Notes under the pieces: model-generated
The model's database searches: none
Told to the model about the DNA's origin: nothing
What the model saw: the letters and a program-made list of their open reading frames with translations, nothing else
Part shown: positions 188 to 23,181 of the stretch, one piece after another
How the letters are laid out: every line of letters starts with the position of its first letter
How positions within the stretch are numbered: the stretch's first letter is position 1
Made by a program: the position numbers and the translations under genes
DNA from: an uncultured Prevotellaceae bacterium
Lineage (GTDB): Bacteria > Bacteroidota > Bacteroidia > Bacteroidales > Bacteroidaceae
Direction of reading: 5' to 3'
Length of the DNA stretch: 39,012 bases
Assembly (NCBI GenBank): GCA_900314125.1
Contig: OMUD01000312.1
Span: 1-39,012, forward strand

Positions 188-339
188 CACAAGTTAACGA
201 TGATTTGATGCATGAACGTTGCGTTGTCTTCCACTTTGAACGCAAACGGACAAACAAGGATATTACGGACGAGCAATCTATTGAAATTGGAGTGGAAGCC
301 AAGAGTAGATAGATTGCTTTCGTTTAAATATAAAGCAAT

Positions 340-1284: not shown

Positions 1285-1291
1285 AAGGTGT

Positions 1292-1717: not shown

Positions 1718-3781
1718 ATGGACGCACAAGAAATAAGACGATGGCATAGCGTTTTCAAACGTGACGATGAATTGTTTGAGATACGCATATTGGGTGATAG
1801 AACTTGGAGCGGTTATTTCTATGATATAGAAAAAGCCATTGAACAATTAAAACCATTTGATAATGCGAATATATATTATTCCATTAACGAGGTTAAAAAG
1901 GCTTGTGCAAGTAGAGAACAATTTAATTGTTTCAAACAAGTGAAAGGAACTGCGACAAGCGAGCAAGATATAGAACATCGGTGGTGGCTTCCTATTGATA
2001 TAGATTGCGAACGACCAAGTGGGGTTAGTTCAACAAATGAAGAGAAATCCTTTGCACACAAAAAAGCACAAGATGTGTTCAAATTCCTTCGTTCAAATGA
2101 TTTTAGTGAACCTGTTGTTTGCGATAGTTCAAGTGGCTATCATTTATTCTATCCGATTGATATGGATAACGATTCCGAAAGCAAACAAGCAATTAAAGCA
2201 TTTCTTGAAACACTTTCAAACCATTTTTCAGATGACAAGGTTAAAATAGATATTGTATTGCACGATGCAAACAGGATAATTCGCCTTCCAGGTTCTTTCG
2301 GACGTAAAGGTCGTTCAAGTAGTGAAAGACCGCATCGTATGGCAAAGATTTTGTCAGTGCCAAAGGAAATCATTAAAATGAATGTTGAAAAGATTAAGTC
2401 TTTCAACGAACAATATCAAGTCAAGATAGAACAACCAATAAGATACAATAACTATGGCTCACAAGAAAAGTTTAACTTACGTGAATTTATCCAAAAATAT
2501 GACATAAAGGTTTCTAAAGAAATCGCTTTAAGTGGTGGTGGAACTAAATATGTGTTAGAAGAATGTCCTTTTGAATCTTCACACAAATCACCCGATAGTG
2601 CCTTGTTTGAAATGCCAAATGGAGCAATAAGTTTTAAATGCTTCCATAACAGTCATTCGCATTTAGGATGGAGGGATTTTAGGTTGCATTTTGATAATCA
2701 TGCTTACGACCACGAAAGCCAGCCACGTCAACCACAATACCGCCAATACATACCACAAGTTCCACAAAAGCCTAAATATGAGATAAAGGAAGAGATTCCA
2801 GAACTTGGTGACAAGTGGATGTCGCTTTCAAAGATTCAGAAGATAGATTTGAGCAAGATAGAGAACGTAAAGACTGGCTTTGTGGAATTGGATAGGAATA
2901 TCGTAGGATTAAACATGACGGAAGTGACGTTGTTGAGTGGAAGCAATAGCAGTGGAAAATCTTCTTGGTTGAACACGCTTTTGCTGAACATCATTAACCA
3001 AGGCGAAAAGTTTGCACTATGGTCGGGTGAGTTGCCACCTACGATACTAAAGTCATGGATTCAGATGACGGCTGCTGGAAAACGTTTCCTTCGCCCATCC
3101 AATTATGGTGATGGAAAATATTATGTTCCAAACAACATAAGCGAAAAGATAGACAATTGGCTTGATGGTAAGTTCTTCTTGTACAATAACGAATACGGGA
3201 ATAATTGGAATCAGATATTCAATGACATGAATCTTTTGATGAATGCAGGTGTGAAGGTATTTGCCTTGGATAACCTTATGTCACTTGATATTGACTTGCT
3301 TGAAGGTGACAAGAATGGCAAGCAAAGGGAATTGATGTTGCAAATCAAGGAATTTGCGAAGAAGAACAAAGTACACATCATCCTTGTGGCACATCCAAGA
3401 AAGACGATAGCATTTTTAAGAAAGACGGACATAAGTGGTTCAAGCGACATAACAAACATAGTTGACAATTGCTTCATCATACATCGTGTGAATAATGATT
3501 TCTTCAAGACAGGTGGTGAATTTTTCGGAAAGGCTGAAATACAAAGATTCCAAGGATATGGGAACGTGTTGGAAGTGTGCAAGAATAGGATGTGGGGTGT
3601 CGTTGACTTGCTTGTAGGAATGCACTATGAAGTGGAAAGCAGAAGGTTTAAGAATACGATTGATGAAGAAATTCATTATGGATGGGAAGAACAACCACAC
3701 CAATCCATGATTACTTACTCGCAAGAAGAAACATCAATGCCTTTTGATGTTAATGTCAATGATGAAGAAGAACCATTTTAA
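1718..3781 (+). CDS. bifunctional primase-polymerase (AEP/PrimPol) fused to an SF4 DnaB/gp4-like helicase
   Basis: 687 aa. AEP motifs are present: DxD (WWLPIDIDCERP), sGxH (SSSGYHLFYPID) and hD (IVLHDANRIIRLPGS). A Cys/His cluster follows (CPFESSH...FKCFHNSHSH). The helicase part has Walker A GSNSSGKSS, Walker B VFALDNLMSL and an ILVAHPRK motif. Confidence 0.85.
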   Translation: MDAQEIRRWHSVFKRDDELFEIRILGDRTWSGYFYDIEKAIEQLKPFDNANIYYSINEVKKACASREQFNCFKQVKGTATSEQDIEHRWWLPIDIDCERPSGVSSTNEEKSFAHKKAQDVFKFLRSNDFSEPVVCDSSSGYHLFYPIDMDNDSESKQAIKAFLETLSNHFSDDKVKIDIVLHDANRIIRLPGSFGRKGRSSSERPHRMAKILSVPKEIIKMNVEKIKSFNEQYQVKIEQPIRYNNYGSQEKFNLREFIQKYDIKVSKEIALSGGGTKYVLEECPFESSHKSPDSALFEMPNGAISFKCFHNSHSHLGWRDFRLHFDNHAYDHESQPRQPQYRQYIPQVPQKPKYEIKEEIPELGDKWMSLSKIQKIDLSKIENVKTGFVELDRNIVGLNMTEVTLLSGSNSSGKSSWLNTLLLNIINQGEKFALWSGELPPTILKSWIQMTAAGKRFLRPSNYGDGKYYVPNNISEKIDNWLDGKFFLYNNEYGNNWNQIFNDMNLLMNAGVKVFALDNLMSLDIDLLEGDKNGKQRELMLQIKEFAKKNKVHIILVAHPRKTIAFLRKTDISGSSDITNIVDNCFIIHRVNNDFFKTGGEFFGKAEIQRFQGYGNVLEVCKNRMWGVVDLLVGMHYEVESRRFKNTIDEEIHYGWEEQPHQSMITYSQEETSMPFDVNVNDEEEPF

Positions 3782-3812
3782 ATTTAAATGTTTAACTAAA
3801 TATGTTTACAAA

Positions 3813-4676
3813 ATGAAAACAAATTTACAAGACGTACAAAAGGTTGATACGGAATTTCGGATGAATTACAACCGTGTCGGATTATTTAATTCTCATTTTC
3901 AAAACTTTAAGCAATTTGGTATTCCAAAAGCGCAACTCATCATCGCAGATGTTCCATACAACCTTGATGTTAATGCCTATGCAAGTAACCCAAAATGGTA
4001 TTTAGATGGCGACAACAAAAATGGTGAAAGTGAATTGGCTGGTGAAGAGTTCTTTGCCACGGACAAAGATTTTCGCCCTGCCGAATTTATGCACTTTTGC
4101 AGCCAAATGCTCCGTCCAGAACCGAAAGAAAAAGGCAAAGCACCATGTATGGTGCTGTTTTGTGAATTTGAACAACAATTCTATTTTATTGAACTTGCAA
4201 AAAGATATGGGTTTAAACATTACATCAATCTTGTATTCAGAAAGAATTATTCGGCACAAGTTTTGAAAGCAAATATGAAGGTTGTAGGAAATTGTGAATA
4301 TGGTTTGATTCTTTATCGTGACAAACTCCCTAAATTTAACAATAATGGGCAAATGGTCATGAATTGCATTGACTATCCAAGAGATTTAGGTTGTGAGCGT
4401 GTTCACCCAACACAAAAGGGATTGCCTCTATTAAAATTCCTTATTGAATTATTCACCGATGTGGATGATGTTGTGATTGACCCAGTGGCAGGCAGTGGTT
4501 CTTCGCTTATCGCAGCGATGCAATTAAATCGCAAGGCTTATGGTTTTGAAATAAGCAAACGTTTTTATTCTATGGCTTGTGACTTGATTCAAAAGAATGG
4601 CAAATGTGTTGACTTGTTCAATGAAAGTCCACAATTAAAGAAACGTGAATTATACACACAAAAAAATTTGTTCTGA
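3813..4676 (+). CDS. DNA methyltransferase, beta class (N6-adenine or N4-cytosine, PF01555-like)
   Basis: Motif IV is ADVPYN, lying upstream of HPTQKG and motif I VIDPVAGSGSS. Start is taken at ATG 3813 (MKTNLQ...), just after the primase stop, rather than ATG 3744, which would overlap the primase by 38 nt. Confidence 0.85.
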   Translation: MKTNLQDVQKVDTEFRMNYNRVGLFNSHFQNFKQFGIPKAQLIIADVPYNLDVNAYASNPKWYLDGDNKNGESELAGEEFFATDKDFRPAEFMHFCSQMLRPEPKEKGKAPCMVLFCEFEQQFYFIELAKRYGFKHYINLVFRKNYSAQVLKANMKVVGNCEYGLILYRDKLPKFNNNGQMVMNCIDYPRDLGCERVHPTQKGLPLLKFLIELFTDVDDVVIDPVAGSGSSLIAAMQLNRKAYGFEISKRFYSMACDLIQKNGKCVDLFNESPQLKKRELYTQKNLF

Positions 4677-4677
4677 T

Positions 4678-5442
4678 ATGATTGAACCGAATACAATACA
4701 ACTTGGCGATTGTCTTGACATAATGAAAGATATTCCAGATAATAGTATTGATTGTGTGATTTGCGATTTGCCATACGGGACTACGGAGGCGTATTGGGAT
4801 AGCATCATACCACTTGATAAATTGTGGGAACAATATCTTCGTATAACAAAGGAAACTGCACCGATTTTACTTTTCGGTGCAGAGCCTTTCTCTACAGTGT
4901 TGCGTATGAGTATGTTGGACTTGTTTCGATATGATTTAATATGGGTTAAGAACAAAGTGACGAATTATCTTGAAGCAAAGAATCGTCCGATGAGAAGACA
5001 TGAAAAAATAAGTGTTTTTTCAAAATCAAAGTTTAGTAACGGATGTAAGACTAAAATGACTTATAATCCACAAGGGTTGATAAGATGCGACATCAAAGTG
5101 CATAATGGTGATAGTAACATATATGGAAAAAGGAAATGCCGTGCAAACACCACATATCACAAACAGGAATTCACGAATTATCCTTCTGATGTGTTGTATT
5201 TCAATTCTGATACAAGCAAATTACATCCTACTGCAAAGCCTATTGACCTTCTCCGTTATCTTATTCTTACTTACTCAAATCAGAACGACATAATTCTCGA
5301 CAACACAATGGGTTCTGGAACAACGTGTGTGGCGGCTATAAAAGAAAAAAGACGTTATATAGGCATAGAAAAGGATGAAAAGTATTTTAGAATCGCAAAT
5401 AAACGTATAGAACAAGAAAAAATGCAATTGAATTTGTTTTAA
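4678..5442 (+). CDS. second DNA methyltransferase, beta class (PF01555-like)
   Basis: ATG 4678 lies 1 nt after the stop of the previous MTase. It reads MIEPNTIQLGDCLDIMKDIPDNSIDCVICDLPYG (motif IV DLPY), then LHPTAKP and ILDNTMGSGTT (motif I). Confidence 0.88.
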   Translation: MIEPNTIQLGDCLDIMKDIPDNSIDCVICDLPYGTTEAYWDSIIPLDKLWEQYLRITKETAPILLFGAEPFSTVLRMSMLDLFRYDLIWVKNKVTNYLEAKNRPMRRHEKISVFSKSKFSNGCKTKMTYNPQGLIRCDIKVHNGDSNIYGKRKCRANTTYHKQEFTNYPSDVLYFNSDTSKLHPTAKPIDLLRYLILTYSNQNDIILDNTMGSGTTCVAAIKEKRRYIGIEKDEKYFRIANKRIEQEKMQLNLF

Positions 5443-5460
5443 ATATTGAAAAATATTTTA

Positions 5461-5468
5461 TATCTTTG
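5461..5468 (+). promoter_or_regulatory. TATCTTTG -7 box upstream of tRNA-Gln
   Basis: TATCTTTGCACA at 5461-5472 is the same 12-mer as at 180-191. The box ends 16 nt before tRNA position 1. Confidence 0.45.
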
Positions 5469-5484
5469 CACATATGGATGCAAT

Positions 5485-5555
5485 AGGGATTTGGTGTAAC
5501 GGTCGCACGTCAGATTTTGGCTCTGAAGGAAGGTTTTCAACTAACCTAATCCCTA
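5485..5555 (+). tRNA. tRNA-Gln (anticodon UUG)
   Basis: Hand-folded cloverleaf. Acceptor AGGGATT/AATCCCT has 7 perfect bp. D stem is GTGT/GCAC with loop AACGGTC containing GG. Anticodon stem is TCAGA/TCTGA with loop TT-TTG-GC (U33, purine 37). Variable loop is AGGA. T stem is AGGTT/AACCT with loop TTCAACT. Discriminator is A and CCA is not encoded. Confidence 0.85.
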
Positions 5556-5606
5556 CAAAATAGAGAAATTAACATATTTATTGTTTTACTAAAGATTAAA
5601 CTTAAA

Positions 5607-6740
5607 ATGGAAAGTATCAGATTTAATGTTAGCGATGTCTTGACTAAATTGAAACAAGTTGTCGGTGTGATTGAAAGCAAACCATCTACACTTGAAATTT
5701 TTTCATGTGTACACATCTTCGTGAAAGATGGCACATTGCAAATGAAATCAAGTGATGGTGAAACATGGGTTGGTGTGAAGATTTTAAACCCATTACCAAT
5801 CGTGGAAAAAATTGATTTTTGTGTCAACGGAAAAGACTTTGCACAAATCTTGTCTAATCTTGTAGGGATTGAAGTCACACTTGAAGTTGATTACGAAAAG
5901 AAAATGGTCAATGGGAAATATGGGAGAAAGGGAAAATTCTCGTTGCCAATCAAAGATGGTAGTGAATTTGTTGATGAACCGACAAACGACACCACACCAT
6001 CAACAAAACAAGTCATTGGCGAAACCATCAAACGAGGAATAGAATTGACGGAGGGTTCGGTAGCCAATGATGAATTGCGACCAATCATGAATGGCATCCA
6101 CATTGAATTCACAAAAGAAAAGATTGATTTCGCATCAAGCGATGGAAAGAAACTCACGTCATTCACATCATACAACGTAAAGAATGATGATGAAGTGGAA
6201 GGTGTTTTCACGTTGCCTTTGAAACCTGCAAGAATCCTTTCGCAATTTGCATCGATGGAAGACATTATTGAGATGTCGTACACGGAAAAGAGCATTAGTT
6301 TCAAGGCTTATGATTGGGTCGTTACGACAAGGTTGTGTGTGGGTAACTATCCAAACTATAGGGCTGTCATACCGAAAGAATGGGTGCGTTCAGTTGTTTG
6401 CGACAAGAATGAGATGCTTTCAACCTTAAATCGCATCTTACCTCTTGGAAACAAGGAATCAAGACTTGTCAAAATAAAATTGTGCAAAGATGAAATGATG
6501 TTGCAAGCGGAAGACATAGACTATTCAACGAGTGCGGAAGAGGCTATAACTTGCGAATATGATGGTGATGATTTCATCATTGGATTCAAGGGTGATGCTT
6601 TGATGCAAATATTGAAGAACATCAATTGTGACAAAGTGGTGATTGGTTTGAACGAGAACAACAGAGCAGGTGTGTTCATACCACACGCACAAGAAGAGAA
6701 AACATCATACGTTTCAATATTGATGCCTATGCGACTTTGA
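5607..6740 (+). CDS. dnaN: DNA polymerase III beta sliding clamp
   Basis: 377 aa, a typical DnaN length. The N-terminus shows the usual pattern (L..L..V..VIE.K...EIFSCV.I....G.L......GE). NYPNYRAVIP matches the conserved YPdY..vIP motif, and the C-terminal ILMPMRL end is typical. Confidence 0.85.
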   Translation: MESIRFNVSDVLTKLKQVVGVIESKPSTLEIFSCVHIFVKDGTLQMKSSDGETWVGVKILNPLPIVEKIDFCVNGKDFAQILSNLVGIEVTLEVDYEKKMVNGKYGRKGKFSLPIKDGSEFVDEPTNDTTPSTKQVIGETIKRGIELTEGSVANDELRPIMNGIHIEFTKEKIDFASSDGKKLTSFTSYNVKNDDEVEGVFTLPLKPARILSQFASMEDIIEMSYTEKSISFKAYDWVVTTRLCVGNYPNYRAVIPKEWVRSVVCDKNEMLSTLNRILPLGNKESRLVKIKLCKDEMMLQAEDIDYSTSAEEAITCEYDGDDFIIGFKGDALMQILKNINCDKVVIGLNENNRAGVFIPHAQEEKTSYVSILMPMRL

Positions 6741-7444
6741 TGTATATGTGTGCAAGAAAAGACATTGTAGAAAGAACAAAGAATGTTGTGGTGAAAGATG
6801 ATTGCTTGTCTTTCATCGCATCATTCAACGGAACTCGCAATGCACAAATAATCGCCATCCTATGTGCGTATTTTTCAAATGGCTATAGCAACCCAATAGA
6901 TTTCGTTAAGAAGATAAACGAAGAAAAATTCAATGGAAATCCTTTGTATTACATAGGAGAATACGACTATTGGGATATTCCAAACTTTTGCTTGTACGAA
7001 AACATCTCCGAACTTAATTTCGCTCGTCTTCTCGTCATCATCAACAATGAGATTCTTTGCCACTACGACATCTTCAACGCACACCATGCGTATATGTCAT
7101 CAACAAAGTTGAAATGCAAGTACGCACACGAAGGATTTGCAAGGATGTTTGGTCACAACACGCATTTCCCAAACATAGACAATCGTGGAACGTTCTATCG
7201 CTACAACCTCATCTTCTATTGGCTCGTCTATAAGTTGAAGATATGGAAAGACATTGACACATCCACCATCCTTCTTCCATGCAACGACATTGTGTTTTCA
7301 AATGCCAAAAAGTTGGGTGTGACGAAAACGAGATTGAAGGCAACGTTATCGGGAACGATAAAGATGACGAGGATAGCGAGGGAAATATTTGGTGATGATG
7401 AATTTTGGAAATTGTACGAACTTTTAAACTATGGTGAATTATGA
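6740..7444 (+). CDS. hypothetical protein, possible DUF2400/TIGR02757-like (HhH-GPD superfamily) homolog
   Basis: ATG 6740 overlaps the dnaN TGA (TGATG). YRYNLIFYWLV...IWKDI....ILLPCNDIVFSNAKKLGVTK......IAREIFGDD.FWKLYELLNYG resembles, from memory, the KRLNLFLRWMVR...LW..I....LIIPLDTH..R.A..LGL block of TIGR02757 proteins. The PLDTH motif is degenerate here (PCNDI). The CDS is solid but the family call is tentative. Confidence 0.35.
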   Translation: MYMCARKDIVERTKNVVVKDDCLSFIASFNGTRNAQIIAILCAYFSNGYSNPIDFVKKINEEKFNGNPLYYIGEYDYWDIPNFCLYENISELNFARLLVIINNEILCHYDIFNAHHAYMSSTKLKCKYAHEGFARMFGHNTHFPNIDNRGTFYRYNLIFYWLVYKLKIWKDIDTSTILLPCNDIVFSNAKKLGVTKTRLKATLSGTIKMTRIAREIFGDDEFWKLYELLNYGEL

Positions 7445-7875
7445 TGGAAATGATTTCAAACAGGTTCGTCAATGGGTACATAGAAAAGACGAAAGCGGAC
7501 ACGTACGAGGGCAAGATAGCGATTGAAGGTGTTGACTTGTCACCGATAGTAGGAATCTATTTCAAGGACGATGGAAAGTATTGGCTGTGGTTGAAAAGGA
7601 AACCTTCGCTTGAATATGACATAAAAAGTGGAACGTACAAGAAATATGAGGTTGAACCTTTTTGGGAATGCTATCTTGAAAAGCAAAAGAAAGGGGTTGA
7701 CTACAAAGGATATTTCATATTTTGCCATTTCAAATACGAATTGGTTGGAATCTATGACAAGTTCATGAAGGGAACGGATAGGTTGAACTTGTTCATTGAA
7801 AGGATGCCTATGGAAAAGCAAACAATAATCAACAATATTAACCAAAGAAATAAAAACAATGAAAACAGACAATGA
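7441..7875 (+). CDS. hypothetical protein (144 aa)
   Basis: It has an ATGA overlap with the upstream gene. A beta-rich N-terminus (TYEGKIAIEGVDLSPIVGIYFKDDGKYWLWLKRKP) vaguely recalls DUF736-type proteins. The tail is N/K-rich. Confidence 0.5.
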   Translation: MMEMISNRFVNGYIEKTKADTYEGKIAIEGVDLSPIVGIYFKDDGKYWLWLKRKPSLEYDIKSGTYKKYEVEPFWECYLEKQKKGVDYKGYFIFCHFKYELVGIYDKFMKGTDRLNLFIERMPMEKQTIINNINQRNKNNENRQ

Positions 7876-8374
7876 AATAAAAAACGAATGGTTGAAACTT
7901 GAAAGGAAATCATTCAAAGAAATAGAGCAAATCTTGCAGAACTTTACGTTTAACGAGCAAGTGATGGTCGGTAGTTTTGTGGCAGCATTATGCGGTGTTG
8001 ACTATTCGGATTTGTTCGTGGAAAACAAACGTCAACAAAATACCCATGCAAGGTGGTTGTATTGGTATGCGATACGATACATGACTGGTGAAACGTATGA
8101 ACGCATTTCCGTCCGCACATATTTCGATGGATGTAGGTTTAGTGGGCAAAACATCGGAATAGGCATTTCCAAGATGAACAAGATGATTGGAACGGAATAT
8201 GAATGGAAGAGAAGATGGAAAATAATCAAGCATTTCATTGATTTGAAGGAAGACCCAGAATCGTATCATGAGAATGACTTTTCCAATCCGATGTCAATGA
8301 AATACAAATTGTCGTTGAACGTTCCGAAAGGCATGAAAAAGAATATTGAGGTTGAAGTAAAAGAAGATAAATGA
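7859..8374 (+). CDS. DnaA domain IV-like helix-turn-helix protein
   Basis: KRQQNTHARWLYWYAIRYMTGETYERISVRTYFDGCRFSGQNIGIGISKMNKMI parallels the DnaA C-terminal pattern (R...v.aRqiAMYL.reLT..S...Ig..FgGRDHsTV.ha..KI). There is no AAA+ module. It overlaps the upstream ORF by 17 nt. Confidence 0.5.
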   Translation: MKTDNEIKNEWLKLERKSFKEIEQILQNFTFNEQVMVGSFVAALCGVDYSDLFVENKRQQNTHARWLYWYAIRYMTGETYERISVRTYFDGCRFSGQNIGIGISKMNKMIGTEYEWKRRWKIIKHFIDLKEDPESYHENDFSNPMSMKYKLSLNVPKGMKKNIEVEVKEDK

Positions 8375-8901
8375 TGGAAGAAAAAGTTTATATGGGAATA
8401 GACCCAGGTAGCAAAGGCTTTATCACGATTCAAGAAAAAGGCGATTTCACGCACGTTTCTATTGAAGATAATGATTTATACCAATTAAGCGACAAAATGC
8501 GTGAGATTCGCTTAAAACACACAAATTTGACGTGTGTGATAGAATCAGTCCACGCAGTGTTCGGGAGTAGTGCGAAAGCAACGTTTGCATTTGGCTTCAA
8601 CAACGGATATTTGATTGGATTGCTTTGTGCGAACAAAATACCATACGTACTTGTTCCACCACAAAAATGGCAAAAGGAAATGTGGGAGCATTCCGACATG
8701 GTAGTGACATACAAGCAAACCACAATAAAGGGAAAACAAATCATGAAGAAAGATGTCAACACGAAGCAAACATCAATCAATTGTTGCAAGCGGTTGTTCC
8801 CGATGTTGGATTTGAGAAAGTCGGAACGTGCGAAAAAGATTGATGACAACAAGGTGGATTCCATCTTGCTTTGTGAATATGGACGTAGAAAAAACTTGTA
8901 A
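8371..8901 (+). CDS. RuvC-like Holliday junction resolvase
   Basis: It has an ATGA overlap. YMGIDPGSKG is a RuvC N-terminal catalytic Asp motif. VIESVHAVFG provides an acidic E, and the C-terminal DDNKVDSILLCEYG supplies catalytic Asp residues. Length is 176 aa. Confidence 0.75.
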   Translation: MMEEKVYMGIDPGSKGFITIQEKGDFTHVSIEDNDLYQLSDKMREIRLKHTNLTCVIESVHAVFGSSAKATFAFGFNNGYLIGLLCANKIPYVLVPPQKWQKEMWEHSDMVVTYKQTTIKGKQIMKKDVNTKQTSINCCKRLFPMLDLRKSERAKKIDDNKVDSILLCEYGRRKNL

Positions 8902-8907
8902 GACGAT

Positions 8908-9528
8908 ATGCAGAATTTCAATGACATAACACAAACGATATTCCATCGTGGAATAACATTCTCAATGCAAGACTATGTGTTTGCAACATTGGTGGTTCTT
9001 GGTGAAGATGTTGGTGTAGCCTATGCAATCGCTTATGAAAGTGTTGAATACGGCAAAGCGATTGGCAAGGAGAAAGAAAAAGACTATTTGATTGAAAAGA
9101 AGAAAGATGGCGAGTTGATGTTGCAACAACAATCATTGATTCAATTGAAGGACGAAATCGCAGAGGCTTATCGTGCCGACATCCAACAAAAAGCATTGTC
9201 ACTTGAACAAATTGAATTTACAGCATCCGACATCAACGCACTCCTTAACAAGTTGCTTGCCACACAAGCCAAAGACCTTGATAGTGCTTCCATCCGTGAA
9301 ATGCTTTCAATCATCCATGAATTGATTAACAACTTTGGACTTTCAAGTGGCAATGATGCTTTTGCGAAACATTTCATTACCATACATCCGAAATTCAACG
9401 CATTGTGCAGATGCGGTAGGGAAATGGATATCGTTAAAGGACTTGATTGTGTTTGCCCAAGTTGCAAGCAAGTGTATAAATGGGTGGAAGAGGAAGATAG
9501 ATTCTATCCGACACCAAACAAACTTTGA
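8908..9528 (+). CDS. hypothetical protein with C-terminal zinc ribbon, possible small terminase
   Basis: A CxC...CxxC ribbon is present (CRCGREMDIVKGLDCVCPSCKQVY). The N-terminal DYVFATLVVLGEDVGVAYAIAY is reminiscent of the TerS HTH pattern (F...Y......AY..AY), and the middle looks coiled-coil. No TerS sits next to terL in this window. Confidence 0.3.
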   Translation: MQNFNDITQTIFHRGITFSMQDYVFATLVVLGEDVGVAYAIAYESVEYGKAIGKEKEKDYLIEKKKDGELMLQQQSLIQLKDEIAEAYRADIQQKALSLEQIEFTASDINALLNKLLATQAKDLDSASIREMLSIIHELINNFGLSSGNDAFAKHFITIHPKFNALCRCGREMDIVKGLDCVCPSCKQVYKWVEEEDRFYPTPNKL

Positions 9529-9532
9529 CAAG

Positions 9533-9907
9533 ATGATTAAAATAATAGACGTTGATATTTTATACACAACCATAGTCGTTGCGTTAGAACCCACGTTGGA
9601 TGAATGGAACGCATTCAAGAAGAAATACAAGGCATACATTACGAATGATGATGAAAAATGTTTCCTTGATGATTTCAACAACAACAAAGGTTGCAATGGT
9701 AGCACAATCCAACTTGATAGAGGGGATTATATGATTTTTGTAAGGTATGCAAAGGAACATGGTGATATAGCACATGAGGTTTTCCATGCCTGCAATTGCA
9801 TCTTGAAATCAAGAGGATTTGAATTGACCGACACTGGTGAATCCTATGCATATCTAATAGGCTTTGTGACAAACAAGGTATATGAGATTTTGGATAACAA
9901 AGGGTAG
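9533..9907 (+). CDS. small HExxH zincin-like protein (124 aa), paralog of 9918-10313
   Basis: ATG 9533 lies 5 nt after the upstream stop. The listed ORF start at 9335 would overlap the previous gene. HEVFH is followed 18 residues later by GESYAYLIGF, a candidate Glu third ligand. Confidence 0.6.
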   Translation: MIKIIDVDILYTTIVVALEPTLDEWNAFKKKYKAYITNDDEKCFLDDFNNNKGCNGSTIQLDRGDYMIFVRYAKEHGDIAHEVFHACNCILKSRGFELTDTGESYAYLIGFVTNKVYEILDNKG

Positions 9908-9925
9908 TGCATCATCACTACCCTT
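9900..9925. terminator. bidirectional hairpin between convergent genes
   Basis: AAGGGTAGTG-CATCAT-CACTACCCTT forms a perfect 10-bp stem with a 6-nt loop. It spans both stop codons (TAG 9905-9907 on plus, TAG 9920-9918 on minus). It marks the switch from rightward to leftward transcription. Confidence 0.6.
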
Positions 9926-10313
9926 CTATTATCACACCATCTTTCTTCAAGATGTCCGTTATCTTACGCATGATATACCCTTGCAACCATGCACCATCCT
10001 CACCACCTTGTGGAATCATATAATGTTCAAGAATGGATGCTTGTACGTGGTCTATTTCATGTGATATTGAATCCATGAATTGTTCCAATGAAGACGATTC
10101 CGAAATAAAAACCACACTCATCGTCAAATCATGACGTGAAATGGTCATGCCTGTGTTTATTCCAAGCAATATCCTTATCGCCCTTGATATTTCTTTATCT
10201 GAAACACCAAAAGAGTTCATGATAGCACCCATCTCGTCCACATCAAGAAAATCGAAGTCATAGCAAAACACTATGCCCCAATATCCATCAACATCTATAT
10301 ATCTCTTTTTCAT
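9918..10313 (-). CDS. small HExxH zincin-like protein (131 aa), paralog of 9533-9907
   Basis: Start is taken at ATG 10313 (MKKRYIDVD), which forms an ATGA overlap with the upstream stop; the listed start at 10328 is a TTG. HEIDHVQ is followed by GGEDGAWLQGY. The layout is collinear with the other HExxH protein (IDVD..., G.TI..., HExxH, GE..A[YW]L.G[FY]...K...[ED]IL). Confidence 0.6.
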   Translation of the reverse strand: MKKRYIDVDGYWGIVFCYDFDFLDVDEMGAIMNSFGVSDKEISRAIRILLGINTGMTISRHDLTMSVVFISESSSLEQFMDSISHEIDHVQASILEHYMIPQGGEDGAWLQGYIMRKITDILKKDGVIIEG

Positions 10314-10720
10314 AACATCTTTTCCCAATATATAGGTATTCCTGCGTTACACATCTTTGCCACAAAGCAATCAAGAACATTCTCTGGCATTCCATCTGGG
10401 TCGCAAATCGTTTCTTCAACAAACATCGCCCTTTGTTCATCCGTCTTCAATGTCTTTGGATAATCAGCCAATGCCATGTTGAATAGATACCATGCGGTGT
10501 AAATAAACTCATCTTGCAATTCAACTCCGCTTTTCTTCATCGTTTCTTTCATTTCGTCTATGGAAATAGGCTTTATCTTCTTCATTTCCTTTGTAACGTT
10601 GTCTTTCATTTCCATATTGCCTATCGCCCACTCCGCAAGTTTCTTGCTGAACAATCCATGATTTTCATCCTCATACATTGCCCTTCCCTCTGATATGTAG
10701 TTTTTCATACAATTAAGCAT
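10310..10720 (-). CDS. hypothetical helical protein (136 aa)
   Basis: ATG at 10720, with an alternative ATG at 10708. It reads LAEWAIGNMEMKD...EFIYTAWYLFNMALADY...CDPDG. No enzymatic motif was recognised. Confidence 0.55.
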   Translation of the reverse strand: MLNCMKNYISEGRAMYEDENHGLFSKKLAEWAIGNMEMKDNVTKEMKKIKPISIDEMKETMKKSGVELQDEFIYTAWYLFNMALADYPKTLKTDEQRAMFVEETICDPDGMPENVLDCFVAKMCNAGIPIYWEKML

Positions 10721-10754
10721 TTTTTAAACGTTTTAAATTATAGTTTTTGTTACA

Positions 10755-10788
10755 ATTAAGGGGAATTTTATAAAAAATCCCCCTTAAT
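10755..10788 (-). terminator. intergenic hairpin (possible attenuator or RNA-stability element)
   Basis: On the minus strand, AAGGGGGATTTT-TTAT-AAAATTCCCCTT forms a 12-bp stem including one G-U, extendable by TT/AA. No clear downstream U-run follows, so terminator function is uncertain. Confidence 0.3.
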
Positions 10789-10804
10789 ATTCCATTTAGA
10801 AAGA

Positions 10805-11032
10805 TTAGATGTATCGTCCTCTGCTATCTCTGCTTCTGCGATAATCCATATCTTCTTCGTCTTCGTTGTCTTCCCATCCATGCTTATATCCTTGGCGATA
10901 ACCTTTTTCGTAATCATCACGATAATTGCCACCGCCAACGTAACGATAGTTACCACTACGCATAGAACGACGCATTTGTTGACGCATCTGACCGCCGCCT
11001 TCGTTCTCTTTATCTACAAAAATCCATGCCAT
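10805..11032 (-). CDS. R/G/Y/D/E-rich low-complexity mini-protein (75 aa)
   Basis: ATG at 11032. It reads MAWIFVDKENEGGGQMRQQMRRSMRSGNYRYVGGGNYRDDYEKGYRQGYKHGWEDNEDEEDMDYRRSRDSRGRYI. It fills the gap between flanking genes with short spacers and is preferred over the overlapping 10768..10956 ORF. Confidence 0.5.
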   Translation of the reverse strand: MAWIFVDKENEGGGQMRQQMRRSMRSGNYRYVGGGNYRDDYEKGYRQGYKHGWEDNEDEEDMDYRRSRDSRGRYI

Positions 11033-11060
11033 TTGTTTGTTCCTTTCTTACTTTAGTGGA

Positions 11061-11582
11061 TTAAACATTGCTTGGCGAGGGGGAATCCAACTTCTGCAAG
11101 ATTCCAAGGATTGTGTCAAGTTTCTTGTCTGTCTCTGACTGGCGACGTTCAAGGTCTGTAATAGTGCGTGCTTGTTTCTTTTCTTCCGCATAACGTGGAT
11201 TCAAGACTTCAAGCATTTTTTCTGATTCGGCAATAACATTCTTGTGCAGCGGAATCTGCTCCAAAGCCTTTTTTGATGTTTGTAGCATATTGTCAACCGC
11301 CTGTAGCATTGCCTCACGACTACCGCTGAAAGTTTCGTTGCCTTGTGCGGCAATTTCGACATTCAAAGGTATGTTGTTGATAACCCTATCACTACCATTT
11401 ATCGTAACCGTCAAATCAACAACCTGCTGAAAGTTCATTCCGTTCATCAAGTTCGGTGTTTGAGTTTGATACTGAGGACGAGGCTGCGACTTTGCCTTGA
11501 CCGTTCCGATTTCGAGCACTGGACGCTCACCTTTCTTTAATACATAGAACGGACTCCCGCTCGTAAGACTGTTTATATCCAT
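11061..11582 (-). CDS. hypothetical protein (173 aa), beta-rich N-terminus plus helical/coiled-coil C-terminus
   Basis: ATG at 11582. The C-terminal region (EKMLEVLNPRYAEEKKQARTITDLERRQSETDKKLDTILGILQKL) looks coiled-coil. No family was recognised. Confidence 0.55.
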   Translation of the reverse strand: MDINSLTSGSPFYVLKKGERPVLEIGTVKAKSQPRPQYQTQTPNLMNGMNFQQVVDLTVTINGSDRVINNIPLNVEIAAQGNETFSGSREAMLQAVDNMLQTSKKALEQIPLHKNVIAESEKMLEVLNPRYAEEKKQARTITDLERRQSETDKKLDTILGILQKLDSPSPSNV

Positions 11583-11613
11583 TGTTAATTACTTTTGATT
11601 GTTAAACACTAAA

Positions 11614-11949
11614 TTACACTATTGTTCTAGACAAAAGAGCCAAGATTCCGTTGAACTTATCGTTAAGAATCTCCATAACGCTTACGTTAAGAATGTCAGC
11701 CACAGTCACAGCATTTCCATTCGGAAGAAGTAGTGGACGTGTAACACCATTCAATGTAAGTGTCACTGGCAATGTAGTCGTTGCGTCAGACGGAATAGGA
11801 TTTTCCATTCGTACAATAAACTTTCCTATAGGCTGAATACGTCTCCAACCAAGTGCAATGTTCACGGTGTCGGCTCCTACGACAACTTGTGTATTCGCAA
11901 TATAAGGCTCACCTCCTGCGTTGATTGTTATGTTTGCGTTACAATTCAT
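11614..11949 (-). CDS. hypothetical beta-rich protein (111 aa)
   Basis: ATG at 11949. It reads MNCNANITINAGGEPYIANTQVVVGADTVNIALGW...PVTLTLNGVTRPLLLPNGNAVTVADI. No family was recognised. Confidence 0.55.
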   Translation of the reverse strand: MNCNANITINAGGEPYIANTQVVVGADTVNIALGWRRIQPIGKFIVRMENPIPSDATTTLPVTLTLNGVTRPLLLPNGNAVTVADILNVSVMEILNDKFNGILALLSRTIV

Positions 11950-11974
11950 GCTTTTAACCTCCTATACCTTAAAT

Positions 11975-12898
11975 TTAGAATACAAAGTTATTGCCTCCGA
12001 ACCCGTTACCATAGTAGCCGTTGAAGCCTCCATAGAAGCCACCGTTCACATAAGGAGTGGTATTAACGGCTGTCAACTGAGGCCACTGGACGGGTACGGT
12101 GTTCGGAATCTTGTTCTCAATCTCTGTCACAGACTTCTGCAACGGGGCAACTACGCTGTTGACGTAACCGATGATTTGGTTGGTCTGCGCTGCGTTGTCG
12201 GCAGCATTGCGCAACTGAGTGATGATGTCAGCCTGCGTGTCAATCTTCGACTGCATCTCACGTTCCTTAACGTCACAGAACGATTGAATCATGGTAGCCT
12301 TGAGGTCTGCGATAGCATCAACGTTACGCTGACCGTTTGCGTTCATGGTGTTCTGCAAGGTGTTGGTTTGGTTACAAAGAGCCAACTGATTGTCGCAGCA
12401 GCACTTCTGAATGGTGCTCGCAAGGTTTGCGTCACCTGCCTGTACTGCGTTAATCAGTTGCAAGGTTGACATACCCTGTGTGTTTGCAATTTGATTGAGT
12501 GTGTTTTGAGCGGATTGGATGCTTGCATTTACAAGGTTGAAATCTTGACCAAGCATTGTTGAAAGTGTTTGGATAGCCGTGCGAGATGCTTCACCTTGGT
12601 TTGTGATTGCGTTCATGATAAGTTCACGCCCGCTATCGTTGTTGAGTTGGTTTGAGATGAATCCAGCACCTCCATTGCCACCGAATCCACCAAAGCCACC
12701 GAACCCGTTGTTACCCCATCCAAACATGGATGCGATGATAGCAAGTCCGAAGAGGTCTGCGATTGAATTAAACCCGTTTCCATTACCAAACATTCCACCA
12801 TTTCCATACGTTCCAAAGCCAATAGGAATAGAAAGAGGGATGTTTGCGTTTCCATTGTTATTGCCGTTGTTGTCTGGCAATTGATAAATTTCGCTCAT
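11975..12898 (-). CDS. Gly/Asn/Phe-rich protein with a hydrophobic segment and a Q/N-rich, Cys-containing helical core (307 aa)
   Basis: ATG at 12898. Both termini are low-complexity (NNGNNNGNANIP...GNGGMFGNGNGF...GWGNNGFGGFGGFGGNGGAGF at the N-terminus, YVNGGFYGGFNGYYGNGFGGNNFVF at the C-terminus). A putative TM/glycine-zipper segment is IADLFGLAIIASMFGW. The core contains a QKCCCDNQLALC cluster. Confidence 0.6.
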   Translation of the reverse strand: MSEIYQLPDNNGNNNGNANIPLSIPIGFGTYGNGGMFGNGNGFNSIADLFGLAIIASMFGWGNNGFGGFGGFGGNGGAGFISNQLNNDSGRELIMNAITNQGEASRTAIQTLSTMLGQDFNLVNASIQSAQNTLNQIANTQGMSTLQLINAVQAGDANLASTIQKCCCDNQLALCNQTNTLQNTMNANGQRNVDAIADLKATMIQSFCDVKEREMQSKIDTQADIITQLRNAADNAAQTNQIIGYVNSVVAPLQKSVTEIENKIPNTVPVQWPQLTAVNTTPYVNGGFYGGFNGYYGNGFGGNNFVF

Positions 12899-12947
12899 AG
12901 TCTTTACATTTTGTGTTTTAAATTAGGTGATTTGTTGTACAACGATG

Positions 12948-12955
12948 CAAATCTA
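12948..12955 (-). promoter_or_regulatory. TAGATTTG -7 box for the leftward ORFan cassette
   Basis: The plus strand reads CAAATCTA, which is TAGATTTG (TAnnTTTG) on the minus strand. It lies 50 nt upstream of ATG 12898 and immediately downstream of the fibre-gene terminator. Confidence 0.4.
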
Positions 12956-12997
12956 TTAAAACCAAATTGCTATGACACAATGCACTTTTACAAGTGC

Positions 12998-13030
12998 AAA
13001 AAAATAGGGCATCGTTTCACAACGACACCC
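12998..13030 (-). terminator. intrinsic terminator after the tail-fibre gene
   Basis: The minus strand reads GGGTGTCGTT-GTGA-AACGATGCCC, a 10-bp stem with two G-U pairs and a GNRA-type loop. TATTTTTTT follows. A second hairpin, GCACTT-GTAA-AAGTGC, lies at 12982-12997. Confidence 0.7.
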
Positions 13031-13061
13031 CACCAATACTAAACTAACAATACAATAAAAT

Positions 13062-16000
13062 CTAAACAACTGAATTAAGGTCAACAAGTGATTCCGTTGA
13101 GCGAGTAAATTCCCAATATATGCATTCATGGTTGTTGTATTGCCCAACCTTGCATTCCGCAACGTACATTATCAAGGCACTATAACTCATGATGTCGGTT
13201 TCAGCACGAATCTTGTGCTCAACGGTGTAACTATATCCGATTGAATTGGTGAGTTCACTTAAATCTTGATACGTTTGCCCATTGCTGAATTTATAGTACG
13301 TGTCAACAAGGAAATAAGGGAATCCACCACTTTTGAAATGCCAATTGTCGGCTGCTGGAAGAAAACAAATCTTCTTCCCGACACATTGCCTCAATTCACT
13401 TAAAGTAAAGTAATTTGATGCATCCTTCATGCCGACAATTTGGAAATTCTCTCTCGTTCCATCCGTTGAATAAGCACAAGGGAGCAAGGCATTAAGTGTG
13501 CCGCTGCTATAGTTCCATTCGTCAATGATAAGGTATGACCCGACTTTCAATGGGTTGATATGCAAGGTGGCTGTAGCTGTGACATAATATCCAAAGTCAT
13601 TCAAGTTGTCATCACGAATCTTTTGTATAAGGTTGTTGATTACGCCTTCAAGCACAATGTCTTTCACATACATCTTGCCACTATTTGCATTCATGACAAG
13701 ATTCGGTATGTACGTGTTTTGTGGGTTGCCTTCACCGAAATACTTATACCCATCCAAGAAACTTGCCGATGTGCCATCCGCTTTCTTTCCCAAAACGGAA
13801 TACATATAATCTTCGTTGAATATCCAACTACCCAATTGTGCGAATTGCGAGAAGATTGCTTGTGAGATGAGATACTTGAAATCCGTTGTCATCAATCGCC
13901 AATTCGCATTTTGGTTTGATGGTCTATTTTTGCTTGAAACATCGAAATGTCCGTTCTCGCCAACCCACACCCACAATTGACCATTGTATGCGTAGTAAGG
14001 GGTTTCAAAGTCGGTCACATCAAAGGTGGCGGTACTTGTTTCAATCCAATCACCTTTGTAGTAAGGATTGCGACCCATCTTACCATCCGCTCCATCGGTT
14101 CCAGGGTTTCCTTTATCACCTTTATCTCCTTTGTCACCCTTGTCACCTTTGTCACCCTTATCTCCCTTATCGCCTTTATCACCTTTATCTCCTTTAAATT
14201 CGCCACAATCCTTCCAAATACTACCATTCCACATATAAAGGTGTCCGTCATCATCATAAGTGTATCCATCGCCTACGTTCGCACTTTCTTGAACAATCCA
14301 AGAACCACCCCATATATAAACAGTGTTGCTTGAATAGACAACCGCATTTGAGTATGTAGGTACACCGCTTTGTGGCAATTGGTTCACGGAACTTGCCATC
14401 GCATAGAGAGAACCTTTGATAGACACACTTGTTCCGTCAGCACCTTTCGTCAAGACAAGTTGCCAATTTGGATTGGATTCGGTAGGAACAGAATTCCTAT
14501 TCGTCCTTTTCGCTCTCCACTTTTGCCCTTGATACCAAACCTCATGCGTTTCATATTGTAAGTCTTCCGAATCCCATGATGCGAACAAATATTGTTTGGT
14601 ATTCGTCCAATCCCCTTTGTCAACATAGTTCACGATTGGATTCCCTTGATAGTCAACCTTGATGAAATCTTCAACAACAACACCTTGTGCGTAGAAGAAA
14701 TCATAGTTCGGATTTTGTGCGATGCGTTCTGCCACGGGGGCATATTGCTTCACAAAGTCTGGCAATATTCCCAATGTCATGCCATAGTTGTTATCCCTCA
14801 ATATAGGATTGTTCACACCTATCAATTTGACGATTCTGCCTTCACTCGTTGACAAGTAGAATAATTGTTGCCTTCGTTGGATAGTTTCAAGAATTGTGCT
14901 GTCCGTACATACGATAGGAACATTGCATTCTTGGCTCTTGTCACGGCATCCCCAACGTGTGATGGTCATGAATTCACATGGTGGATAATTCGTGCCAGAT
15001 GGTACATAAGAATCCAAATAGCATCTAACATATATCTCATTGACATTCGCTTGTGGAATTGTAACGTTATAATCCAAGGCAATTGCATCTATTTCTTCTT
15101 GCGTCAGCACATACATCCATGATGTGTAATACTTGTTTCCACCACCATCGGTTGATTGACCTGCATCACTTTCTTCAACATCGGACACATTGCCCATCTT
15201 TCCTGCCAACGTATTGATGACACCTTTCAAGATATTTCCACCTTGTTGTGATGTGACATATCCTTCCCATTTTTCCTTCAAAGAAAGGCGATACACCGAA
15301 TATTCATCATCAGTCACAACGTATTCAACTTTATCAACTTGGTCGTTGTCCGTGAACATCGTATCACCTTCTTGTGCTTGCACACGATTGATGAGTAATT
15401 CAACAACTTCAAGGAAAGACCTGACCTTTAGGCTTTCAACCTCCATGTTTCCATGTTCGTCCAATCTCCAACCACGTCCTTCACCTGCGTTCATGCTTGA
15501 AACATAATCGTGAGATTGTAGGGCATCGGCAAACACACATTTCCCTAAAGCATCCAATCCTTGTTGGAATGTGATATGTCCTTGTGCGACATCATCAATA
15601 ATCTTTGAGAGTTTTTCATCAAGTTGCTTTTGAAGACTTGCATATCCTTCCGATGCGTTCATTCCATAGTATTGTGCTATTTGCGAAACTTGAACACGCA
15701 ACTTGCTCACATCTTCCGTTGTTTGACCAATCTGATTCAACACAATTTCAACGTCATCCGTCAACGTTATCGTGTATTGTGGCAATGTACTTTCTCCAAA
15801 CTTTATTGAAAATTCCTTGATGTACAAAGCAAGTATTGCATTGCCAAACTTGAATCTCACAATCTTGTTATTGTCAAGTTGCGACAAAATATCAAGGTTG
15901 TCACGCAAGAACTTTTCATCAAAGGTTAATGGATAGTCAAAATAATACACGTTGTTTTCCAACATATATTCCATCATCGCCTCATCAAGTTCCCTTTCTG

Positions 16001-18153: not shown

Positions 18154-18630
18154 TTATTGTTTCAACTTGCGTACACTCCAATACATTATGGCAAGAATGA
18201 AAAGGAAAAGGAATACAGGAGCAATAATGCTCCATATTCCTCTAATCTTCTTTGTTACCTTTTTATTTTCAACCACATTCACCTTTTCTTTTTGCAATTC
18301 GTTTATTGCCTTTTGTAAGGAATCCACCTTGCTTTTATATCTATCCGTTGAGTCTTTCGCATACACGTAGTGGTACATATTGTTGTTCACCACTTCACGA
18401 ATTGTGTCACCACTTTCCTTCAATGTGATTGTGCGAATTTGAACATCCTTAATCGTGTCAACGTGTGTGATGTATTGAGTTTCCTTAATCGTGTCGCACT
18501 TGAATATGTGTATCGTATCGTGCGTTTCGTTGTATATTGTGTCCGTATGGCTTTCATACACAATTTCCTTCTTTGTTGTGCATGATAACGATAGAAAACA
18601 AACAACGAAAAATAAACATAAGTATTTCAT
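18154..18630 (-). CDS. lipoprotein with C-terminal TM anchor, unimolecular-spanin-like
   Basis: MKYLCLFFVVCFLSLSC looks like a lipoprotein signal with Cys17. The C-terminal TM is IWSIIAPVFLFLFILAIMYWSV. Five xDTIx repeats occur in the N-terminal half. It sits directly downstream of the endolysin. Confidence 0.45.
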   Translation of the reverse strand: MKYLCLFFVVCFLSLSCTTKKEIVYESHTDTIYNETHDTIHIFKCDTIKETQYITHVDTIKDVQIRTITLKESGDTIREVVNNNMYHYVYAKDSTDRYKSKVDSLQKAINELQKEKVNVVENKKVTKKIRGIWSIIAPVFLFLFILAIMYWSVRKLKQ

Positions 18631-23138: not shown

Positions 23139-23181
23139 CAAAAATTATTTTTTTATTAACCAAAAATTGTAGTAGAAAACT

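Follow-up and report, generated by a model that had tools for sequence, protein, structure and literature searches.

Several described phage systems resemble, in one respect or another, the locus reported here. Lambdoid morons, such as bor and lom of phage lambda, have their own promoter and terminator and lie at the edge of the late region, by lysis or fibre genes. Bacteroidales phages, including the crAss-like phages, are among the most abundant viruses of gut and rumen, and most of their genes have no assigned function. The head fibres gp21 and gp29 of crAss001 are accessory virion proteins of 97-118 amino acids with a C-terminal beta-sandwich and a patchy distribution among crass families (Bayfield et al. 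2023, PMC10172136). Polyvalent metallopeptidases, as in the dar operon of phage P1, carry a zincin HExxH...E motif and have been proposed to process proteins that accompany the phage DNA (Iyer et al. 2017, PMC5512222). Here we describe a six-gene cassette, g1 to g6, in a stretch of 39,012 nucleotides (nt) assembled under an uncultured Prevotellaceae bacterium (contig OMUD01000312.1; the whole stretch is referred to as the window), which is part of a Bacteroidales phage from cow-rumen metagenomes.

As judged from sequence comparison, there is a solid case that the cassette is an autonomous, portable operon with dedicated control elements, two predicted expression tiers and no characterised relative (Table 1). 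The homologues recovered indicate that it is common to thousands of gut and rumen Bacteroidales phages of differing build. Our preferred explanation, to which we assign a probability of roughly 40%, is that it encodes a virion-associated fibrous or ejection assembly together with a maturation pair made at low level. An original prediction, made from the DNA letters, had proposed host takeover, exclusion, anti-defence or surface decoration for these genes; of these, surface decoration is the candidate function that fits the evidence best.

Table 1. Positions of the cassette genes and of their control elements and borders in the window
Feature	Positions	Strand	Product	Basis
g1	11975-12898	-	307 amino acids	
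g2	11614-11949	-	111 amino acids	
g3	11061-11582	-	173 amino acids	
g4	10805-11032	-	75 amino acids	
g5	10310-10720	-	132-136 amino acids, probable start 10708	
g6	9918-10313	-	131 amino acids	
Intrinsic terminator of the 1692-amino-acid fibre gene	13003-13034	-		terminator scan and sequence
Dyad A, GCACTT-GTAA-AAGTGC	12982-12997	-		sequence and leader comparison
Bacteroidota-type -7 box, TAGATTTG(CA)	12946-12955	-		motif TAnnTTTG(CA)
Dyad B, GTTGTACAAC, perfect 10-bp palindrome	12934-12943	-		inverted-repeat scan of leaders
Internal terminator-like hairpin, g4/g5 spacer	10758-10785	-		12-bp stem, TTAT loop, RNA folding
Terminal bidirectional 8-bp hairpin, GGGTAGTG-ATGATG-CACTACCC	9902-9923	both		sequence reading
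Second mini-metallopeptidase gene, converging on g6	9527-9907	+		HEVFH, phrog_1365, E 1.3e-12

The six tightly packed leftward open reading frames (ORFs) that had been predicted are present, and independent gene callers agree on three public contigs. About 100 related loci were fetched (labels such as L001 and L005 denote these), and the order g1-g2-g3-(g4)-g5-g6 is kept in them almost without exception, with median intergenic gaps from g1 to g6 of 23, 31, 23, 68 and 3 nt. The single ATGA coupling noted earlier is the overlap of g5 and g6 at 10310-10313, and these two genes overlap or abut across loci, so that translational coupling is predicted. Exact copies of g1 occur in ENA and Logan contigs whose record names carry the project code PRJEB21624. 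Relatives of g1 were found on 123 IMG/VR contigs and on 23 contigs of Bacteroidales metagenome-assembled genomes (MAGs), and clusters at 90% identity number 1,643 for g3 and at least 3,198 for g2.

Gene order is thus conserved while the flanks vary. Within 10 kb or less on either side, a fibre gene was recognisable by tblastn in 20 of 82 loci and the terminase gene TerL in 6, and a same-strand ORF of at least 600 amino acids was the upstream neighbour in 10 of 65. For most genome contigs and larger viral contigs, the cassette is the sole part in common with the window. Its backgrounds include siphovirus-like phages, rumen contigs among them, crAss-like phages and phages with an SU10-like capsid. 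The crAss-like carriers are cr272_1 and cr109_1 (Suoliviridae) and cr116_1 (Steigviridae); crAss001, from the subfamily of cr116_1, has no cassette by profile searches and whole-genome tblastn. The cassette genes of cr272_1 (L001) and cr109_1 (L002) are whole only when TAG is read as an amino acid, which fits stop-codon reassignment in those phages. The closest cultured relative of the window is Bacteroides phage C3_41T2LP (TerL 53% identical over 99%), a siphovirus of B. uniformis whose phage cluster was assigned to siphoviruses by electron microscopy (PMC9727126). It carries the cassette at the same tail/replication junction, but inverted, on the strand of the recombination genes; its genes 00036-00033 are the counterparts of g1-g4. 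L094, a 539-kb Bacteroidaceae contig, contains a prophage that ends in the cassette, which is directly followed by a tyrosine integrase and then by host genes; an integrase also stands directly after g6 in two further loci (L102, L091). The L094 prophage (1901-14114) has an SU10-like capsid gene and encodes a 989-amino-acid metallophosphatase-domain protein, and its cassette lies beside the integrase and a host tRNA synthetase gene.

A lineage census was anchored on the profile of the sliding clamp, since the 206-amino-acid product of a neighbouring gene, used as anchor, gave only two close relatives. The cassette is complete in all 24 clamp-anchored viral contigs with enough flank and converges there on the replication block; where the clamp is more distant, the contig has no cassette. 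The description of the cassette as an accessory module therefore needs division: it is portable and patchy in Crassvirales (present in cr116_1, absent from crAss001), but fixed in the window's lineage. Cassette proteins are about as conserved as TerL and a putative portal (in L011, TerL 70%, putative portal 68%, g2 86% and g3 75%), which is easier to reconcile with a core late function than with an anti-defence island of rapid turnover. Identities within the cassette conflict from locus to locus. In L005, the closest overall relative, TerL (73%), the putative portal (87%), g5 (77%) and g6 (83%) contrast with g2 (55%) and g3 (62%); L003 has g1 at 92% and g6 at 38%; and L024, L025 and L027 have a clamp about 34% identical, with g2 and g3 at 92-98%. 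The segments g1, g2-g3 and g4-g6 have therefore been exchanged independently.

Such mobility would suit a moron-type conflict module that acts outside the virion, is expressed from its own promoter, also from prophages, and excludes superinfecting or competing phages or counters a host defence, with g6 as an activating or effector protease. The cassette is an apparently autonomous unit with a promoter, operator-like dyads and terminators, as described below; it is orientation-independent, sits in unrelated backgrounds, is patchy in Crassvirales and adjoins a tyrosine integrase at the prophage ends of L094, L102 and L091. Zincin peptidases are also frequent in conflict systems (PMC5512222). We nevertheless consider this explanation unlikely. 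No PADLOC defence model matched (the best were Cas11b for g5, E 0.0025, and a ZorA tail for g1, E 0.0098, which is coiled-coil noise), and the loci with examined flanks, which take in a minority of the 23 MAG loci, are phage or prophage. Fixation in its own lineage, at a conservation close to that of TerL and the putative portal, is unlike the usual turnover of defence islands. Moreover, crAss-like phages, which to our knowledge are not known as temperate, also carry the cassette.

Independent transcription had been predicted for the cassette, and the control region supports it: an upstream terminator, a conserved -7 box and cassette-specific dyads accompany the genes. The fibre gene closes, as expected, with an intrinsic terminator, the 14-pair stem-loop GGTGGGGTGTCGTT-GTGA-AACGATGCCCTATT followed by TTTTTTT, 28 nt past the fibre stop codon. 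The anticipated box, TAGATTTG, was found at 12948-12955, 49 nt ahead of the ATG at 12898. A TAnnTTTG box lies approximately 55-100 nt ahead of g1, mostly 55-90, in 73 of 86 distinct leaders of related loci; C3_41T2LP has no canonical TAnnTTTG box ahead of g1. For the -33 element of Bacteroidota primary-sigma promoters (TTTG, approximately 19-21 nt upstream of the -7 box), inspection by eye gave only ATTG with a 22-nt spacer, and dyad A fills the region. Taken alone, the 8-mer TAnnTTTG shows no enrichment over the window (49 sites against 41.7 expected), but the comparison of leaders ties the box to the cassette. The extended motif TAnnTTTGCA has six sites, five of them in intergenic gaps ahead of gene blocks. 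The five intergenic sites, at 180, 5461, 12955(-), 23021(-) and 23131, precede the replication genes, the clamp, the cassette, TerL and the head block, respectively, and likely sketch a promoter map of the window; the pair at 23014-23140 forms a predicted divergent promoter region between TerL and the head genes.

The second GNRA-looped hairpin of the original prediction is also present and is here read as a promoter-linked dyad, dyad A, which begins 42 nt before the -7 box. In the form GGACTT-N4-AAGTCC it lies exactly 42 nt before the box (core ACTT-N4-AAGT at 40) in 20 of 69 distinct leaders, with near variants in about 10 more, as against 1.7% of shuffled sequences, and the composite element is restricted to the cassette promoter within each locus of about 20 kb, with one exception. 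On both strands of the window, ACTT-N4-AAGT with at most one mismatch was found 47 times against 22.9 expected, a count that no shuffle reached; the sites other than that at the cassette promoter are mainly within genes.

Dyad B lies 4 nt past the -7 box, near the predicted transcription start, and occurs only once in the window. Perfect inverted repeats with arms of 5 nt or more, located no further than 32 nt past the box, are found in 83% of 66 leaders and in 19% of shuffles. The sequence varies by lineage with its symmetry kept, from GTTGTACAAC in the window to GTAACGTTAC, GTGACGTCAC, GTAATCGGTTAC and TGTCA-N7-9-TGACA. Because many versions are zero-spacer palindromes unable to form an RNA hairpin, dyad B looks operator-like. 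A general role as a stabilising 5' RNA hairpin was ruled out on the same grounds (minimum free energy, MFE, 0.0 in the window; median z -0.36). A cassette-encoded regulator co-evolving with the palindrome was likewise rejected, as operator similarity follows the adjacent g1 alone (rho 0.31), with no added signal from g5 or g6. Outside the cassette, the 206-amino-acid protein at 8908-9528 (+) has a C-terminal CxC...CxxC zinc-ribbon-like motif and no family match; it is present with the cassette in 30 fetched loci, in the same lineage as dyad A, and is a candidate regulator.

The internal hairpin that had been noted lies after g4 (MFE -19 kcal/mol, z -3.8). In the window it has a strong stem and a weak T-run, and many homologous spacers have clear T-runs. 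A strong G+C-rich hairpin follows g4 in 48 of 50 distinct spacers (T-run common, median z -4.2), and also in C3_41T2LP. The end hairpin is shared with the converging block, as stated earlier, and holds the stop codons of both g6 and its converging neighbour. Rfam covariance models gave no match over 9500-13300 at E up to 1. Since the promoter, the dyads and the terminator-like hairpin after g4 are conserved, we infer a single promoter and expression in two tiers, an abundant one of g1-g4 and one of g5-g6 that depends on read-through.

The description of these genes as ORFans did not survive database comparison. PHROG families without assigned function were matched by g1 (phrog_16490, E 3.7e-27), g2 (phrog_31654), g3 (phrog_28898, E 3.6e-25) and g5 (phrog_38431), with E-values from 4e-27 to 8e-10 for the four; g5 also belongs to Pfam DUF7841, and the homologues fall into many clusters. 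In their source records, all relatives are named "hypothetical protein". The accompanying statement, that none of the products can be tied to virion, lysis or replication, was borne out, as no characterised virion, lysis, replication or defence family was matched in PHROG, Pfam, PDB, NCBIfam or PADLOC. NCBIfam profiles gave nothing for the cassette products, profile searches of the five alignable families against PDB sequences gave nothing significant, and a DNA-level search of the 3.5-kb region against a phage collection gave no match. In the literature searched, neither the cassette nor its families were described other than as database placeholders, and DUF7841 was not mentioned.

The g1 protein has a low-complexity head, a long rod and an aromatic tail. 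Its Gly/Asn/Phe bias, like the Arg/Gly/Tyr/Asp bias of g4, was confirmed from residue counts. The head (residues 1-80) is uncharged, with 23 Gly, 14 Asn, 9 Phe and no Lys or Arg, and contains a 15-residue hydrophobic core, LFGLAIIASMFGW, which is Gly-zipper-like and has a KD15 of 1.93 (KD15 and KD19 denote mean Kyte-Doolittle hydropathy over 15 and 19 residues). Residues 81-125 are almost invariant in an alignment of homologues. The rod is predicted to be helical over approximately 200 residues and is rich in Asn, Gln, Thr and Ala, with few charges; it has a near-invariant CCC motif (166-168) and at least three alternative middle modules among homologues. The tail is rich in Gly, Tyr and Phe, and 64 of 70 homologues end in Phe, with a hydrophobic residue at -3. 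Searched against PDB profiles, g1 gave only coiled-coil noise, and the Gly-rich head searched alone gave nothing, with no similarity to the T-even gp38 adhesin.

Some of these features recall spanins and fusogens. If g1 were spanin- or fusogen-like, acting on the host envelope late in infection together with the lysis genes while the other products regulate or mature it, its zipper-like core, the lack of Lys and Arg before about residue 87, the long helical rod with conserved cysteines and the terminal Phe would all have a use. The neighbourhood also suits such a role. Recognisable endolysin or holin genes stand upstream on the cassette's strand, at a distance of 0.8-1.6 kb, in 15 of 87 loci. 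In 8 loci they are found downstream, at 0.5-3.1 kb, and in 8 they are as far as 5.6-9.7 kb upstream, with the fibre gene intervening in the window's lineage; these counts are a lower bound because only four endolysin types were used as probes. Lysis genes adjoin the cassette in all three crAss-like genomes read. This adjacency may reflect a functional link, or merely the placement of both at the end of the late region. L036, a 98-kb viral contig, carries an extra gene of 290 amino acids within the cassette (12056-12928), between g3 and g5, which weakly matches endolysins and a peptidoglycan-binding domain; a g4 could not be recognised in this locus. Lysis modules are in general known to pass freely between morphotypes.

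Several observations make this envelope role distinctly unlikely. KD19 of the hydrophobic segment is below 1.6, the usual transmembrane threshold, in 97% of homologues, so that hydropathy gives no support for g1 as a classical membrane anchor. No lipobox or signal peptide was found in any of the six proteins, nor a hydrophobic leader in g2-g6; g2-g4 are soluble and co-conserved with g1, yet would have no access to a rod in the periplasm. A holin-like gene, an amidase and a protein that resembles a unimolecular spanin (u-spanin) are already encoded in the window, and we know of no outer-membrane disruption step that needs as many as six genes.

The same architecture can be compared with that of keratins or FG-nucleoporins, and g1 could by analogy form filaments or a gel inside the cell that organises replication or assembly, with g4 as partner. 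The uncharged Gly/Asn/Phe head, the 200-residue helical rod and the Gly/Tyr/Phe tail, the Arg/Gly/Tyr-rich g4 with its GxxxG motif, the cytoplasmic character of all products by sequence and the predicted abundance of g1-g4 are consistent with an intracellular scaffold. The argument is one of architecture throughout: Pfam and PDB profile searches found no homology to intermediate-filament proteins, and low-complexity Gly-rich ends are also found in fibres and adhesins. A scaffold is very improbable. It is a long shot that g1-g4 constitute a new self-assembling phage material, filaments or a gel in which a keratin- or FG-nucleoporin-like g1 with its cysteine-bearing coiled-coil rod joins the Arg/Gly/Tyr-rich g4 and two small folded proteins, matured by a dedicated mini-metalloprotease and portable across thousands of Bacteroidales phages, including crAss-like ones.

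Structure models of g2 and g3 were built from alignments of database matches. The g2 alignment has a mean identity of 64%, and AlphaFold2 (AF2) models the protein as an eight-stranded beta-sandwich (predicted local distance difference test, pLDDT, 83) with a disordered N-terminus that carries a conserved Cys. Against the PDB the fold gave nothing significant, the best match being a baseplate/fibre chain of Pa193 (E 0.21, template modelling (TM) score 0.44). In BFVD it matched small gut-phage proteins and a crAss-like protein of 294 amino acids that bears the name DUF7841. These were followed by numerous long proteins with the annotations tail fibre, receptor-binding, hyaluronidase or collagen-repeat (E 3e-4 to 1e-2, TM 0.45-0.6). 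For g3, the model (pLDDT 71) consists of a small N-terminal beta-barrel (11-86) and three helices (89-165); it is only of moderate confidence because the alignment is shallow, and it has no PDB match below E 0.05. Structural homology to fibre proteins, which the original prediction had named as a check on its proposal, is thus seen for g2 at the level of fold in BFVD and is missing for g2 and g3 in the PDB.

The g4 protein contains 16% Arg, 15% Gly and 11% Tyr, is also rich in Asp, and has in alignment a GYRQGYKHGWED (GxxxG) helix motif and a conserved basic C-terminus, RRxRDSRGR[YF]x; homologues occupy the same position in 43-59 loci. The g5 protein is acidic and helical and scores 50.4 bits against DUF7841 (cut-off 25.2), a Pfam entry of no known function to which gp65 of cr109_1 also belongs (148 bits). 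Its cysteines are not invariant, which rules it out as a zinc-binding protein. The DUF7841 proteins of crAss-like phages are longer than g5, at 201-294 amino acids (BFVD A0A8S5LXP6 of crAss-like virus ctRQZ5; L002 8129-8734). One of these longer proteins contains a g2-fold region, a hint that a g2-like domain and a g5 domain can occur in one protein and may thus act jointly.

The last gene had been called a mini-zincin, and this assignment was upheld. The motif of g6 is HEIDH, an HExxH with a Glu 15 residues further on, and W12, H85, E86, H89, E105, A108 and G112 are invariant in 39 homologues. In a zincin core, the zinc is bound by an HExxH helix and, as third ligand, by a Glu further along the chain (Iyer et al. 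2017, PMC5512222); by its sequence, g6 is a mini-metallopeptidase with an intact active site matching that core. In searches with the PolyVal, M78 (ImmA/IrrE) and SprT profiles, the best E-values were 0.006-0.03, in a few members of its family and below gathering scores. The PolyVal profile gave no match, including for the C3_41T2LP homologue that its depositors annotated as "PolyVal metallopeptidase", and the best PDB profile match was myroilysin (E 0.37). The small HExxH gene that converges on g6 encodes a distant paralogue (BLASTP E 4e-6 over the active-site helices); members of its family, phrog_1365, are found immediately ahead of g1 in cr116_1, and in L114 and L123 they stand opposite g6.

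Taken as a virion-associated assembly, the cassette would work as follows. It would be transcribed from its own host-type promoter with two flanking dyads; the transcript would run through g1-g4 and be mostly halted or stabilised at the hairpin after g4, and read-through would yield lower amounts of the translationally coupled g5 and g6. The abundant products would assemble in the cytoplasm into a fibrous structure of the virion, either an accessory fibre or adhesin or a membrane-active ejection complex. In this structure g1 would be the rod, whose sticky Gly/aromatic ends and Cys cluster bind or insert, with cross-linking outside the cell; g2 would form a fibre-knob-like beta-sandwich, g3 a barrel-plus-coiled-coil adaptor or chaperone, and g4 a small glycine-zipper partner. 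The low-level g5 and g6 zinc peptidase would serve in maturation or processing.

This virion reading is favoured for several reasons. Co-conservation and the lack of export signals, including any hydrophobic leader in g2-g6, suggest assembly in the cytoplasm. The g1 rod has cysteines and an extracellular-fibre composition, since low charge with much Asn, Gln, Thr and Ala typifies fibres and extracellular proteins more generally. Fibre proteins also share the fold of g2. In the genome, the cassette belongs to the late region, beside fibre and lysis genes; it stands at the end of that region, after the fibre gene, in the window and its relatives and inside the structural block in crAss-like phages. 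The strict gene order, the conserved hairpin after g4, the conservation comparable with TerL and the putative portal and the fixation in the window's lineage count in its favour as well. Its segments recombine like those of fibre genes, which are often exchanged independently. Finally, proteins that phages deliver along with their DNA often contain zincin peptidase domains (Iyer et al. 2017, PMC5512222).

Other findings weigh against a place in the virion. None of the cassette products has a match among solved virion proteins, either in sequence or in fold. The profile of g2, run against 1.84 billion representatives, retrieved small stand-alone proteins only, so its link to fibres is one of fold. 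Both g2 and g3 are conserved far above the usual receptor-binding tips, and it is hard to picture a docking site common to siphovirus, crAss-like and SU10-like virions. The virion of crAss001 has been wholly solved (PMC10172136), and that phage is without the cassette. The cassette carries a separate promoter, placed after a terminator, and in C3_41T2LP it is inverted onto the early-gene strand. We know of no counterpart of g4, g5 or g6 in fibre modules.

The remainder of the window gives the genomic setting. The replication block occupies the plus strand (1-9907), up to the converging end of the cassette, and encodes a replication initiator, a primase-helicase, two methyltransferases, the sliding clamp, a RuvC-like resolvase and the small HExxH protein. 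The methyltransferase genes (3744-5442, +) are neighbours with a slight overlap and are of the N6/N4 DNA type. The minus strand runs from 22991 to 9918, in the order TerL, a 508-amino-acid gene, a holin-like gene, an Amidase_3 endolysin, a 158-amino-acid lipobox protein, the 1692-amino-acid fibre and the six cassette genes. The 508-amino-acid gene is without family match and is a putative portal by position alone. The 158-amino-acid protein (18154-18630, -), which carries the lipobox LSLSC at its N-terminus and a hydrophobic helix (KD19 2.54) at its C-terminus, has a layout resembling that of a u-spanin; it had no PHROG match, and homologues were recognisable in few related loci. The fibre product has collagen repeats, and a 9-bp unit repeated 9.7 times at 14110-14196 (-) encodes a collagen-like (GDK)n stretch. 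Head and tail genes lie on the plus strand after the TerL side and include a tape measure of 2336 amino acids.

The cassette is a large and sharply defined piece of the uncharacterised gene content of Bacteroidales phages, common to several virion types, and it makes a good experimental target because a cultured phage, C3_41T2LP, carries it. If virion-associated, it would give Bacteroides phages an accessory fibre or ejection device of a new kind, relevant to host range and to adhesion in the gut; if not, it would be a new portable system active in the infected cell. Either way, the conserved promoter and dyads offer a handle on the poorly known regulation of Bacteroidota phage genes.

Compared with known systems, the cassette shares part of its character with each. 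Spanins (Rz/Rz1, T1 gp11) are like g1 in having a coiled-coil rod, conserved cysteines, hydrophobic or aromatic ends and, often, an endolysin nearby, whereas g1, at 307 amino acids, has no confident transmembrane domain or lipobox and has soluble partners. The P1 dar operon is likewise a late-region, multi-gene set with a zincin peptidase, but the cassette proteins are small, single-domain and not polyvalent, with no homology to Dar proteins. As for the crAss001 head fibres gp21 and gp29, the cr116_1 cassette occupies the same region, between lysis genes and the capsid gene; the cassette profiles have no match at the crAss001 locus, and the cassette has no recognisable capsid-binding segment. 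Side tail-fibre modules (lambda stf/tfa, T-even gp37/gp38) are alike in their site past a fibre gene, in segment mosaicism and Gly-rich segments, and in a rod-like protein followed by a small beta-rich one, with the g2 fold recurring in fibres. They differ in that there is no sequence or PDB-level homology, that g2 and g3 are conserved and not hypervariable, and that these modules have no counterpart to the cassette's genes for an intrinsically disordered protein, a DUF7841 protein and a metallopeptidase, or to its own promoter and internal terminator. Lambda morons come close in autonomy, in their position at the late-region edge, in patchy presence and in the integrase-end position in prophages. 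The cassette shows the moron traits of promoter and terminators, with variable location and orientation and with presence variable in Steigviridae and 24 of 24 in the window's lineage. A lambda moron is a single gene, whereas the cassette has six co-conserved genes, is fixed in its own lineage with core-like conservation, also occurs in crAss-like phages and shows no envelope-targeting signal. Its organisation is thus that of a moron-like accessory operon, a known type, from which gene content, size, conservation and control architecture set it apart, and there is a real chance that it will turn out to be something new.

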